Positions 10,203 through 13,653 of a stretch of DNA of 52,788 bases are shown one piece after another. The notes beneath the pieces are model-generated. The model searched no databases. It was not told the origin of the DNA and saw only the letters and a list, made by a program, of their open reading frames with translations. The DNA is taken from positions 1 through 52,788 of the forward strand of contig JACQSB010000002.1 of assembly GCA_016206175.1 (NCBI GenBank), given 5' to 3'. The DNA is from Candidatus Uhrbacteria bacterium (GTDB taxonomy: Bacteria > Patescibacteriota > Patescibacteriia > JACQRZ01). Position numbers and translations under genes: made by a program. Each line of letters opens with the position of its first letter. Position 1 is the first letter of the stretch.

Positions 10203-10276
10203 GGGCCCATAGTATAGCGGTAGAACGGTTCCATGGCATGGAACAGGTCGGGGTTCGACTCCCCGTGGGTCCACCA
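10203..10276 (+). tRNA. tRNA-Ala(GGC)
   Basis: GGGCCCA...TGGGTCC-ACCA with G3:U70; anticodon arm GTTCC-ATGGCAT-GGAAC with the A32-U38 typical of this isoacceptor. Confidence 0.95.
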
Positions 10277-10282
10277 GAAAAA

Positions 10283-10320
10283 CATTAAAAAGACTCGAAT
10301 ATGTTCGAGTCTTTTTAATG
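10283..10320. terminator. Intrinsic (bidirectional) terminator after tRNA-Ala
   Basis: Perfect 17-bp inverted repeat CATTAAAAAGACTCGAA-tatg-TTCGAGTCTTTTTAATG. Confidence 0.8.
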
Positions 10321-10368
10321 CGCCATACACTACCATGCCCCGCTATGGTATGCTGTAAGAACAATCCT

Positions 10369-10920
10369 ATGCAACCGCAAGCTCGCATCCCAACAATCAA
10401 AGGTCTTTTTGTCATGAGCCATATCCGTGCACTGCGCGCATCCCATGGCCAGCAAGCAGTGCAAGATTTGGAACGCAGGTATGGCAAGTCAATCGCGTTC
10501 GCGCCATTTGAGGAAGTGCCGGTTCGAGAGGAAGTGGCGATACTTGAACACATCATTGCTATCACCACATCCAGTCTTGCTTCCGATCAGCGGGCATACG
10601 AGGCAGGACGCCTTCATTTCCGTAATTTTACCGAAACGCCTTTTGGCCGCATCATCTTTTCGCAATTCAGAACTCAATTCAAACGTTTGATGATGAATGC
10701 AGGATATGTCGCCGGGCACGTGTTTCGCAATGTGCAATTTTCCTCACGCGAAGGAGGTAGTACATCTGTAATCGTCACGATACGGAATAATGACTATCCG
10801 ATCGACCATTTTCGCGGGTTGTTCCAAGCATGGATGGAATACGCCGGCCTTCGAGGGACAGTGAGAGCGCGCGAGATCCCTCCCGATGGGTACGAGTATC
10901 TCATGACGTGGGAAGATTGA
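10369..10920 (+). CDS. DUF2378-like protein (V4R/H-NOX-related small ligand-binding fold)
   Basis: TIKGLF at the N-terminus, GRLHFRNFTETPFGRI, HFRGLFQAWMEYAG, terminal EYLMTW: the pattern of the myxobacterial DUF2378 family. Confidence 0.6.
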   Translation: MQPQARIPTIKGLFVMSHIRALRASHGQQAVQDLERRYGKSIAFAPFEEVPVREEVAILEHIIAITTSSLASDQRAYEAGRLHFRNFTETPFGRIIFSQFRTQFKRLMMNAGYVAGHVFRNVQFSSREGGSTSVIVTIRNNDYPIDHFRGLFQAWMEYAGLRGTVRAREIPPDGYEYLMTWED

Positions 10921-12359
10921 TGCGTATGCCGCAAGCAAACCACACTCCGAAAGATGTTGAACGCATCGTCAAGCGGCTTGAGTCCTTGCGGCCGATTTTC
11001 GCGCGTGCCGCTATCGGTGATTACTCCGCGGATGTGCCGCCCTACGAGACAGAAGATGAATTGACCGAGTTTGCCGTCGGATTGCAGATTATGCTGGAGG
11101 TCATACGCGAAAAGATAGCAAAACATGAAGAGTTGCAGAAGACGCTTGAGGAGAAAATTGTCGAGTACGCGGATACGCAGCGCGCATTGCTCAATGTTAT
11201 GGAAGATGAAAAACAAACACGCGCTCAACTCGAGCTTGTGCGTCAAAGGGAAGCGGAGGAAAAAAAGAAGCTCGAGATATTAGTTGAGAGTGTAGGCGAG
11301 GGCATTATCGCTGTAGACGAAAAGCTGCAGGTCGTGATGGTGAATTCGGCGGCATATGCGATACTAAAAGCTACAGAGAAAGACATCATAGGCAAACAGA
11401 TATGTGAAGTCATGCAGGTGATGGATTCGGACAAAAAGGTCATTCCCGAGAATGAGTATCCGTGTACGCTTTCTATACAGTTAAAAAAGAGGCTCGTGCT
11501 GGGAAATCTCGAATCACCATACTACCTAAAATCGCTTTATCACGATCCCGTGCCCGTATCCCTTACTTCCACGCCGCTCTTGTCGAATGGCACTCGAGGA
11601 GCGGTGATTGTTATTCGCGACATCTCTGAAGAGGTTGCCCATAGCCGCACAAGAAGTGAGTTTATTACGGTAGCCTCCCATCAGTTAAAAAGTCCGATGA
11701 CGATTATTCGATGGATCTCGGAATGGCTAACAGAAAATGAGACTCTGTCCGAAGAAGGAAAGAAGCTGCTCAATGATTTGCATAGCGCGTCGCTGCGTCT
11801 TACCTCTTTAACCGACACATTGCTCAATGTCTCGCGGCTCGAAGAAGGGATGGTGCGCGTTGACGTCACGTCGGTGGATGTCGGCAAGCTCGTATCAGAG
11901 TATTGCAATCTCCTTTCATCGTATGCGAAGGAAAAAGAAGTGACACTCCAATGCGTTTCTCCATCAACGCCGGTAAAAATCAAAAGCGATGCCGCATTGA
12001 TTACCGTCATTGTCCAAGTTTTGTTGACAAACGCGCTGGATTACACGCTCGCCGGAGGTACGGTTTCTATCGCTGCAGCACGCGATGAGAGCCGTACGGT
12101 GATCAAGGTCTGGGATTCTGGCATCGGCATTCCACAGCAAGAACAGCATCACATCTTCACAAAATTTTATCGTGCGCCAAATGCGGTTCCCTATAAGGTT
12201 GAAGGCACCGGTCTTGGTTTATACACGGCAAAGAAAATCACTGATCTGCTCGGCGGTAAGCTTTGGTTTGAGTCACAGGAAGGAAAGGGATCTATGTTTT
12301 TTGTCGAGCTCCCCGAAAAAATCAAAGCGCGGGAAGGAACGAAACAGCTTGTTTTTTAG
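10920..12359 (+). CDS. Soluble HAMP-PAS sensor histidine kinase
   Basis: TGATG overlap with the upstream gene; HAMP-like AIGDYSADV...DELTEFA; PAS ESVGEGIIAVD...VNSAA...RDIS; H-box ASHQLKSP; N box LLTNALDY; DSGIGIP; GTGLGL; no TM segment. Confidence 0.92.
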   Translation: MRMPQANHTPKDVERIVKRLESLRPIFARAAIGDYSADVPPYETEDELTEFAVGLQIMLEVIREKIAKHEELQKTLEEKIVEYADTQRALLNVMEDEKQTRAQLELVRQREAEEKKKLEILVESVGEGIIAVDEKLQVVMVNSAAYAILKATEKDIIGKQICEVMQVMDSDKKVIPENEYPCTLSIQLKKRLVLGNLESPYYLKSLYHDPVPVSLTSTPLLSNGTRGAVIVIRDISEEVAHSRTRSEFITVASHQLKSPMTIIRWISEWLTENETLSEEGKKLLNDLHSASLRLTSLTDTLLNVSRLEEGMVRVDVTSVDVGKLVSEYCNLLSSYAKEKEVTLQCVSPSTPVKIKSDAALITVIVQVLLTNALDYTLAGGTVSIAAARDESRTVIKVWDSGIGIPQQEQHHIFTKFYRAPNAVPYKVEGTGLGLYTAKKITDLLGGKLWFESQEGKGSMFFVELPEKIKAREGTKQLVF

Positions 12360-12444
12360 CCCCGTGGCGCGTGATCGCCATCTCTTGCGGTTATCGGCAT
12401 ATATTGTAAGATAGCCGCATAGTATTTTATGTTCAAAGAGGTAT

Positions 12445-13653
12445 ATGCCACGAGAAAAAGCTGGATCAAAAGCATTTGTCGAAGGAGTGAGCGAAGCAGC
12501 ATCCGATCGAAAGGAATATAAGGTCGGATCAATGAGTTTTGACGAGGTGCGGAAAGTAATGCCAAAGCTCGCGGACGAATTTCGTACAGACACGGAGGCG
12601 ATCAGAGGCGCACCCGAGCAATCAAAGCGCGGGATCACTGACGCGCTCACCAAAGACCTGCGGCCCAAAGTCGCGCAAGCAAAGGGCGTTGTTGATGCGT
12701 GGCTGATCATAAAGGAGGCCGAGGTGCGCGGTTTGCTTGCCGGTCGGTCGTTCGATAAGGAATATACGTCTCTTGAGCAGCTCTATTCACGATCTGCAGA
12801 AAATCCTAAGCTTGGATCCTTGCGGGACGTAGATGTAAAAAAGGTTATACCAAACCTCGAAGCCCTTTTCCGTGTTATCCGTTCAGATATCGCGAAAAAT
12901 CTGCCAACGATGAGCGGCGAGGCAGCAGAAAAATATTTATATGAAAAAGTTTCAGTCCTTGCAAATGAGTTGGAGCAAGCAAAAGCAGTTGTGACAGCAT
13001 GGTTTTCAATGTTGCCGCATGAAACATACTCTGATGCTGAATCTGTGTCTTCCGGACGCGCGAGCGGATCAACGATCACTGACCAGCAGACAACTTCTGT
13101 ATACGCAAAAGCGGCAGAACTCCTGCGGGAGCAGCCGCCTTCGCGCGGAACAGCTCCACTCGAGACGCGCGGTACGGCCCCGCTTGTAGAAGGCGAGTTT
13201 GATATCGACAGTAGCAAAGTTACATTGCAGAATTTGATGAGTACGTTGATAAACACTGTTATCCGCGGCCCGGCAACGGGGAGAGGTTTTTTACAGAATA
13301 TTGAAGAAAGCTACGGATTATTTCAAAAAACAGTAAAGCTGTACTATTCATTGCGGGACGCAATGTCGTTGCGGTACCGGGGAGAGCAGTTCCATGATGC
13401 CCAGCGAGAAATGGACTCCTACGGAAATGAACTTCGGCATTTAGTCGGAGGAATTAAATCGTTGATGGTCCTTTCCGAAAGCCGGAAATCAGAAATAGGG
13501 AAAGCAAATGTTCCGATCATTGAAGATCGGATCAAAGCCATCAAAGATGATCTTGATCAAGTCTGGGCAGATATCGGGTATTCTGTCGGGACACAACCAA
13601 GCGTATTTCGCGGATCTCGCCAGTTTTTAACGAATCCGAAGAAAGGCAAATAA
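12445..13653 (+). CDS. Hypothetical helical protein with an internal duplication
   Basis: 402-aa ORF; repeated ...KV(M/I)P(K/N)L...QAK(G/A)VV(D/T)AW unit and a SRGTAPLE-TRGTAPLV tandem. Confidence 0.75.
   Translation: MPREKAGSKAFVEGVSEAASDRKEYKVGSMSFDEVRKVMPKLADEFRTDTEAIRGAPEQSKRGITDALTKDLRPKVAQAKGVVDAWLIIKEAEVRGLLAGRSFDKEYTSLEQLYSRSAENPKLGSLRDVDVKKVIPNLEALFRVIRSDIAKNLPTMSGEAAEKYLYEKVSVLANELEQAKAVVTAWFSMLPHETYSDAESVSSGRASGSTITDQQTTSVYAKAAELLREQPPSRGTAPLETRGTAPLVEGEFDIDSSKVTLQNLMSTLINTVIRGPATGRGFLQNIEESYGLFQKTVKLYYSLRDAMSLRYRGEQFHDAQREMDSYGNELRHLVGGIKSLMVLSESRKSEIGKANVPIIEDRIKAIKDDLDQVWADIGYSVGTQPSVFRGSRQFLTNPKKGK

Follow-up and report, generated by a model that had tools for sequence, protein, structure and literature searches.

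Small H-NOX proteins act on enzymes encoded together with them, namely histidine kinases or GGDEF-EAL proteins, to which they bind and whose activity they regulate (PMC8738867). The H-NOX protein of Vibrio cholerae is reported to carry out heme-free, redox-responsive signalling by cysteine oxidation (PMC7108781). The DUF2378 family has been called functionless and "exclusive to myxobacteria" (PMC9257966). The works listed by a full-text search for DUF2378, TIGR02265 or PF09536 are myxobacterial transcriptomics, and nothing on the family surfaced among the papers listed for H-NOX together with V4R/Bet3 or with the Candidate Phyla Radiation (CPR). Here we describe two adjacent genes from a Candidatus Uhrbacteria bacterium (contig JACQSB010000002.1, positions 1 to 52,788, hereafter the window) that encode a DUF2378 protein (P0001) and a soluble sensor histidine kinase (P0002). 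We consider it reasonably likely that the two genes form one sensing unit, in which a heme-less sensor with an H-NOX-type fold acts in trans on the kinase. The pair is probably an undescribed two-protein sensing device. A preliminary description of the same DNA, made from the letters alone, had proposed a diffusible DUF2378 sensor docking on an N-terminal HAMP segment of the kinase, with a fold like that of H-NOX or V4R.

The assignment of P0001 to DUF2378 held up in profile searches. The protein scored 45.1 bits against Pfam DUF2378 (PF09536; cut-off 22.2; profile positions 7-176 of 177) and 48.2 bits against NCBIfam TIGR02265 (cut-off 25), and it resembles the myxobacterial members in passing both hidden Markov model cut-offs, in its length of about 180 amino acids and in being a stand-alone protein. 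A word-indexed search that yielded 175 candidates gave 107 homologues at E ≤ 1e-3, mostly with 40-59% identity. The few that carry organism names are from Candidatus Doudnabacteria, Candidatus Daviesbacteria, Bacteroidetes and Thermoplasmatota. Searched exhaustively, a set of 1.84 billion cluster representatives gave 116 relatives, 27 of them at E ≤ 1e-30; all 116 matches were 45-237 amino acids long, and no fused form was detectable among them by sequence. The preliminary description had presented the extension of the family to the CPR as new. This did not hold, as members in Doudnabacteria and Daviesbacteria are already publicly annotated as "DUF2378 family protein".

An AlphaFold2 model of P0001, built from an alignment of 30 sequences (mean pLDDT 95.4, pTM 0.90), has the helical N-terminal subdomain and the alpha/beta C-terminal subdomain that characterize the H-NOX fold. 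Foldseek matches of this model in the PDB, listed to rank 45, were all H-NOX or soluble guanylate cyclase beta-subunit domains, with E-values of 3e-8 to 4e-4 and TM scores of 0.58-0.73 over the full length. Comparison with representative structures by VIA-align also put H-NOX proteins on top (Z 15.5, 14.8, 14.7 and 13.4). In the best of these matches, to a Shewanella H-NOX, model residues 10-183 aligned with chain residues 1-180 (169 residues, root-mean-square deviation 3.0, Z 15.5). The next fold classes were the TRAPP Bet3 type (Z about 9) and the VirS N-terminal domain, YslB and BcsD (about 8), followed by the V4R protein MJ1460 (6.8) and PoxR/DmpR (6.3-6.6). The V4R and XylR-DmpR-PoxR sensory domains and TRAPP Bet3 are small-molecule-binding domains of a related fold class (Z 6.3-9.3), but they are a far weaker structural match than H-NOX, and the DmpR/PoxR domain is fused to its regulator whereas P0001 is free-standing. 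P0001 also had no Pfam match to V4R (PF02830). Judged from the predicted structure, then, H-NOX is clearly the nearer of the two fold relatives that had been suggested.

The residues with which H-NOX proteins hold heme appear not to be shared. We used ten Pfam-positive H-NOX proteins from genomes as a comparison set; their invariant columns include the proximal histidine H103, P116 and Y133-x-S135-x-R137. The last of these, the YxSxR heme-propionate motif, occurred in 10/10 H-NOX proteins and in 0/107 DUF2378 homologues, and Pfam HNOB (PF07700) did not match P0001 at E ≤ 0.1. We mapped positions from the VIA-align ranges (offset +9 at the N-terminus and +3 at the C-terminus), an approximate mapping by end-to-end structural ranges and not by residue-level superposition. 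On this scale the equivalent of H103 falls at about residues 108-112, where P0001 has no histidine; H117, which is near the mapped position, is not invariant. A conserved histidine triad is found instead: among the 30 aligned members H18, H83 and H147 are invariant, as are K11, G12, E55 and Y143, among others, and simple site patterns for the three histidines were found in 98, 104 and 107 of the 107 close homologues. By the same approximate offsets the triad maps at or near H-NOX positions 9, 74 and 140-142, and hhalign likewise aligned H18 to position 9. In the O2-binding Tt H-NOX, the distal-pocket residues are W9, N74 and Y140, and we infer that the triad faces the cavity in which H-NOX proteins carry heme. 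When the alignment was widened, the triad was retained only by the closer relatives (identity of about 35% or higher) and in part by an intermediate group, and distant DUF2378 members (20-27% identity) have aliphatic or tyrosine residues at the three sites.

Like the Vibrio cholerae protein, P0001 has an H-NOX fold and may signal without heme. P0001 contains no cysteine, which rules out the cysteine-based redox mechanism of that protein; 56 of the 107 homologues have any cysteine. Because the classical heme ligands appear to be missing, the analogy with H-NOX is one of architecture and not of chemistry. The preliminary comparison with H-NOX accessory sensors thus stands for the fold and the gene arrangement and apparently not for the heme ligands. 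DUF2378 may already sit in an H-NOX-like clan of Pfam.

Possible fused forms of the sensor fold were seen in a structure search of the ESM Atlas. Two clusters, 711-amino-acid GAF histidine kinases of Thermodesulfobacteriota and 707-amino-acid GAF-GGDEF proteins of Actinomycetota, align with the entire sensor model (TM 0.70-0.73) and may be such forms.

The kinase consists, in order, of an N-terminal HAMP-like module, a coiled coil, a PAS domain, HisKA and HATPase_c, and it has the residues expected of an active enzyme in its H, N, G1, F and G2 boxes (H254, N371, D399xGxG, F413 and G429xGxGL). Its description as a kinase free of membrane segments was borne out: there was no hydrophobic segment in P0002 fit to span a membrane. 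The highest 19-residue Kyte-Doolittle mean, 1.59, was within the ATPase domain, and the first 130 residues did not exceed 0.86. It had also been noted that no response regulator is adjacent, and we found none on the whole contig of the window; the two receiver matches of the genome are on other contigs (C6 and C26).

The first 100 residues of P0002 matched no family above threshold. As a single query, kinase residues 1-80 found only themselves and one twin with 91% identity. The first 100 residues of 18 proteins encoded downstream of DUF2378 genes nevertheless align as one module, with the hallmarks PIFAKA, GDFS, DDEF and MLEVIR, and a profile of these 18 partners matches the module of P0002 at E 3e-31. 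A search with the profile among longer proteins gave 15 module matches. The only Pfam family touched by this part of P0002 is HAMP, with residues 15-63 aligned to profile positions 5-52 of 53, at a score of 13.6 bits (E 0.088) that is below the Pfam cut-off of 25. HAMP is also the only family that recurs among the module members, as a sub-threshold match in 4 of 18, and one member from another CPR genome (L071; module E 3.8e-25) passes the HAMP cut-off, at 25.2 against 25 bits over profile positions 4-53 of 53. In searches of PDB sequences with the module profile, the best matches were weak and were all HAMP proteins (HtrII at E 0.028, Aer2 and VicK), and two archaeal partners are named "HAMP domain-containing histidine kinase" at NCBI. 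A monomer model of the module (pLDDT 84) has the helix-connector-helix layout of HAMP, with a helix at 10-31, a loop at 32-46 and a helix at 47-99. No Foldseek match to this model reached E ≤ 0.001; the nearest were a chemoreceptor model (E 1.9) and the Aer2 poly-HAMP (E 9.5).

From these alignments we conclude that the module is a putative divergent HAMP. The HAMP-like start seen in the preliminary description is therefore supported by the alignment of residues 15-63 and by L071, and not by the score of the copy in the window. The module has the same helix, 15-residue connector, helix arrangement and near-full profile alignment as HAMP (PF00672; Aer2 poly-HAMP), but unlike the usual HAMP it is the extreme N-terminus of a soluble protein, with no preceding transmembrane helix. 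Docking on a HAMP domain has a precedent in the CHH receptor, whose HAMP is reported to bind a kinase that is a separate protein (bioRxiv 10.64898/2026.05.25.727664).

The association of the two genes is not unique to this genome. We surveyed gene neighborhoods by a pattern scan with one genome per species (GTDB set), which gave 30 loci, 29 of them with a full-length sensor gene and one (L036) with a C-terminal remnant, and ran the sensor and module profiles over six-frame translations of all loci. Of the 29 full-length loci, 23 encode a module 3' of the sensor gene and on its strand, as does L036. The preliminary description had pointed to the TGATG overlap of stop and start codons in the window, and tight spacing is the rule elsewhere: in 19 of the 23 loci the homology of the partner starts at -9 to +30 nt, counted from the final base of the sensor stop codon. 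The gap is wider (116-418 nt) in four archaeal-type loci (L014, L026, L028 and L033). By record titles, the linked loci come from Doudna-, Davies-, Roizman- and Saccharibacteria and Paceibacterota in the CPR, from Bacteroidota, Ignavibacteria/Chlorobiaceae and Pseudomonadota among other bacteria, and from Methanobacteriota, Halobacteriales and Thermoplasmatota among archaea.

The output domains of the 23 partners vary: 17 have HisKA (5 of them with a fused receiver), 1 has HisKA_2, 2 have HisKA_3, 2 are GGDEF-EAL proteins and 1 is the module alone. These soluble kinases and GGDEF-EAL proteins are the partner classes of classical H-NOX. Ten of the 23 have no match to PAS or any other sensor domain. 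Nine of these (L013, L014, L015, L016, L023, L024, L026, L028 and L029; L033 and L035 likewise) are made up only of the module and a kinase core or GGDEF-EAL, and the tenth (L012) is the module alone. Single-domain receivers are encoded directly 3' of the kinase in L007, L008, L013, L021 and L022. The module is the only part that is constant across partners with four different output types. Because outputs were exchanged while the N-terminal module stayed, we regard the module as the best candidate for the contact site. Distances between sensors correlated better with distances between modules (r 0.49, 24 pairs, Mantel p 2e-4) than with distances between ATPase domains (r 0.30), and the partial correlations were 0.38 for sensor and module versus 0.18 for sensor and ATPase.

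Several of these loci have features of their own. The partner that is a module alone (L012:4558-4833) is a protein of about 91 amino acids with no output domain; its gene, which comes after the DUF2378 gene and overlaps it by ATGA, is closed by a GC-rich terminator hairpin. Open reading frame calls in seven loci of different phyla (L009, L010, L022, L023, L024, L027 and L030) put the first in-frame start of the partner 10 nt ahead of where the sensor gene ends, and this recurring position may be a conserved coupling site. The genome of L028 (G068), titled "Proteobacteria bacterium", grouped in one phylum with that of L026 (G067), a Thermoplasmata archaeon; 10 of 151 genomes of this phylum have a Pfam-positive H-NOX.

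By analogy, the pair in the window would be a heme-less variant of the H-NOX/kinase accessory-sensor scheme. Both P0001 and the stand-alone H-NOX proteins that work with HnoK/HahK-type kinases or GGDEF-EAL proteins are small and free-standing, share one fold over about 180 residues and start with KGxxF. They differ in that the DUF2378 sensor has no HNOB match, no YxSxR, no histidine at the approximate proximal position and a conserved histidine triad instead. The partners differ as well: those of DUF2378 carry the HAMP-like module, and we know of none described for H-NOX partners, no literature search having been aimed at those N-termini. We propose that the sensor is made in step with the kinase by coupled translation, as the overlap of the genes suggests, and that a small ligand or metal would bind P0001 via H18, H83 and H147 in a cavity equivalent to the H-NOX heme site. 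The sensor would bind the helical HAMP-like module of the kinase. A ligand-driven change in the sensor would alter the packing of the module and, through the coiled coil and PAS, the catalytic core, and so set the autophosphorylation of H254. The phosphoryl group would then pass to one of the two orphan single-domain receivers of the genome. These are stand-alone proteins of 124 (contig C6) and 126 amino acids (contig C26), with 33-41% identity to the receivers encoded after the kinase elsewhere, and no closer to them than those are among themselves.

If the proposal is correct, one branch of a family described as functionless and specific to myxobacteria would gain a function that can be tested, the H-NOX signalling scheme would gain a member that does not depend on heme, and there would be an explanation of how input reaches HAMP kinases and c-di-GMP enzymes that lack a membrane anchor. 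One of very few sensory inputs would also be identified in an ultra-small CPR genome with three kinases and two receivers. A more general version, which we put forward only tentatively and consider rather doubtful, is that a heme-less branch of the H-NOX fold extending from the CPR to Thermoplasmatota uses the three-histidine site to sense a metal, a gas or redox state and docks in trans on cytoplasmic N-terminal HAMP domains. In that case HAMP would be a plug-in socket for diffusible sensors (DUF2378 and perhaps the STAS-like DUF7793) on kinases and c-di-GMP enzymes.

P0001 might instead work as a true H-NOX, with heme b as its cofactor and NO or O2 as the signal passed to the kinase. No other fold comes nearly as close, the gene arrangement mirrors that of the H-NOX operons (PMC8738867), and heme might conceivably be ligated differently, by the three invariant histidines. 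However, the heme-propionate motif and the HNOB match are missing, there is no histidine at a proximal position that is itself only approximately mapped, and the genome, which is 77% complete, showed neither ferrochelatase nor ALA dehydratase, all of which makes heme-based sensing quite improbable. A different possibility is that the small protein senses nothing and is a fixed accessory of the kinase (a stabilizer, inhibitor, scaffold or substrate), with the PAS domain of P0002 as the sensor. Coupled translation would suit such a stoichiometric subunit, but in the 10 of 23 partners that lack a sensor-domain match the small protein is the sole candidate input. Its fold, moreover, belongs to a ligand-binding sensor family, and its invariant polar residues appear to be in helices that line the cavity in H-NOX, so we think a fixed accessory unlikely. 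The adjacency of the genes could also reflect co-transfer only, the proteins not interacting and the small one having an unrelated role. This would fit the occurrence of the module without DUF2378 and the distant DUF2378 paralogues of three CPR genomes (7, 5 and 1 copies), none of which adjoins a signalling gene; their neighbors encode UPRTase, SDR, HAD, DUF763, a transposase, a ZIP transporter, SOD and polysaccharide deacetylase. The pairing is kept, though, in 23 of 29 loci over bacterial and archaeal phyla despite the exchange of outputs, and the spacing is almost always a few bases, so we regard mere co-transfer as very improbable.

The interpretation of the pair as one sensing unit, which we favor, also has to face results that weigh against it, the unlinked distant paralogues among them. 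Sequence comparison did not recover the relationship to H-NOX: hhalign of the DUF2378 alignment against the ten H-NOX proteins gave a probability of 7.5% and matched only residues 11-77 with H-NOX 2-70, in a match that opens with the common KGxxF, and a PDB sequence search with the sensor profile gave chance matches only (E ≥ 0.07). A promoter scan found no sigma-70-like promoter on the + strand upstream of 10369. The correlation of sensor and module distances can stem from shared transfer history alone. Six of the 29 full-length loci (L019, L020, L025, L031, L032 and L034) have a sensor with no adjoining module; five of these six genomes have no module anywhere, and that of L019 has one on another short contig. 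Conversely, in 400 further genomes of the phylum to which the window belongs, the module was found in six and a weaker DUF2378 match in three, with zero overlap, and the genes upstream of the module-bearing kinases in those six are unrelated. In one of the six, the upstream gene encodes a 120-amino-acid SpoIIAA-like/DUF7793 protein (L072, G349:C7, oriented 1139-1501) and overlaps the start of the module-bearing kinase. Because the module exists without DUF2378, it is not a dedicated DUF2378 receptor, and it can evidently work with other inputs or with none. The distant paralogues limit the proposal in another way. Because they are unlinked to signalling genes, and distant members lack the three histidines, the functional inference covers the histidine-triad subfamily and not all of DUF2378. 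The function that the preliminary description foresaw for the family would thus apply to the subfamily linked to kinases, and not to distant CPR paralogues with unrelated neighbors.

A SpoIIAA-like/DUF7793 gene is also found directly 5' of the DUF2378 gene in a Daviesbacteria locus (L008, 3628-3987), and a DUF7793 gene is nearby in L022. SpoIIAA-like/DUF7793 proteins may be a second trans-acting partner of soluble HAMP kinases. In three CPR loci without a module, a secreted protein of about 370 amino acids is encoded near DUF2378 (L020:4703-5812, L025:4638-5918 and L032:5485-6771); the three are 46-62% identical and have no Pfam match. The genome with seven distant-type DUF2378 matches (G228; contigs C1, C2, C3, C4 and C10; L076) is a CPR genome of 1.1 Mb in which three of the matches lie within 2.7 kb, an expansion of paralogues that resembles the one known in myxobacteria.

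The features of the locus are listed below. We favor 10369 as the start of the small open reading frame because the 29 aligned homologues begin 5-10 residues ahead of the conserved IKG motif. A second ATG at 10926 is an alternative start of the kinase and gives the stored 477-amino-acid form (P0224). The junction is either a 1-base overlap (ATG 10920) or a 5-nt spacer (ATG 10926), and the genes are tightly juxtaposed in both cases. The hairpin between the tRNA gene and the DUF2378 gene is probably the terminator of the tRNA-Ala.

Features of the DUF2378-kinase locus, in positions of the window
Feature	Position	Strand	Basis or remark
tRNA-Ala(GGC)	10203..10276	+	ARAGORN; directly 5' of the pair
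Hairpin, 18-bp stem, T/A runs on either side	10282..10321	.	Terminator-like scan; between tRNA and DUF2378 gene
DUF2378/TIGR02265 protein P0001, 183 aa, stand-alone, histidine-triad subfamily	10369..10920 including stop (coding 10369-10917)	+	HMM scores, H-NOX-fold model
Codons of invariant histidines H18, H83, H147	10420-10422, 10615-10617, 10807-10809	+	Alignment of 30 sequences
TGATG stop/start overlap, one base in common	10918..10922	+	Sequence; TGA 10918-10920, ATG 10920-10922
Soluble sensor histidine kinase P0002, 479 aa	10920..12359 including stop (coding to 12356)	+	Pfam domains, catalytic boxes
N-terminal module common to partners of DUF2378 genes	10926..11204; core aa 15-63 = 10962-11108	+	18-partner profile, HAMP alignment
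PAS domain, aa 120-235	11277..11624	+	Pfam PAS 33.2 bits, PAS_9 28.2 bits
HisKA dimerization/phospho-acceptor domain, H254, aa 245-310	11652..11849	+	HisKA 45.9 bits
HATPase_c catalytic domain, aa 357-467	11988..12320	+	Pfam 89.6 bits; N, G1, F, G2 boxes

The genome (0.93 Mb in 29 contigs) encodes one DUF2378 protein and three HisKA kinases, of which only P0002 has the module, besides the two receiver domains. Among 60 relatives of the same genus, family and class, DUF2378 was found in none and the module gave one weak match (E 1.6e-4). Because the pair is found in 0/60 relatives, it was probably acquired by horizontal transfer, most likely as a unit. In a 100% complete genome of the same genus there is no counterpart of window positions 10229-12535, and the left flank (pyrF, tRNA-Val and a phosphoribosyltransferase-like gene) and the right flank are on two different contigs with other neighbors; a clean insertion relative to this genome was therefore rejected. 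The tRNA-Ala gene marks the left edge of the region without a counterpart, and the corresponding site in G001 showed no tRNA-Ala. The right flank, a gene for a 402-amino-acid protein followed by FBPase and aldolase genes, has 77-80% DNA identity to the same-genus genome. The 402-amino-acid protein, encoded after the kinase at 12445-13653, matched neither Pfam nor NCBIfam; its conservation alongside FBPase and aldolase in the genome of the same genus places it outside the acquired pair.

Contigs from three groundwater runs of one study gave a separate view of the assembly. The tRNA-Ala (10203-10281) is a branching node in them, with a depth of 146-190 compared to about 13 on its flanks and with other flanks in the same samples, so the connection to the upstream gene depends on the path that the assembler chose through this node. 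The junction between sensor and kinase was spanned in 3/3 runs, and the join between the kinase and the downstream gene was spanned in one run at similar depth; we conclude that the pair belongs to this organism.

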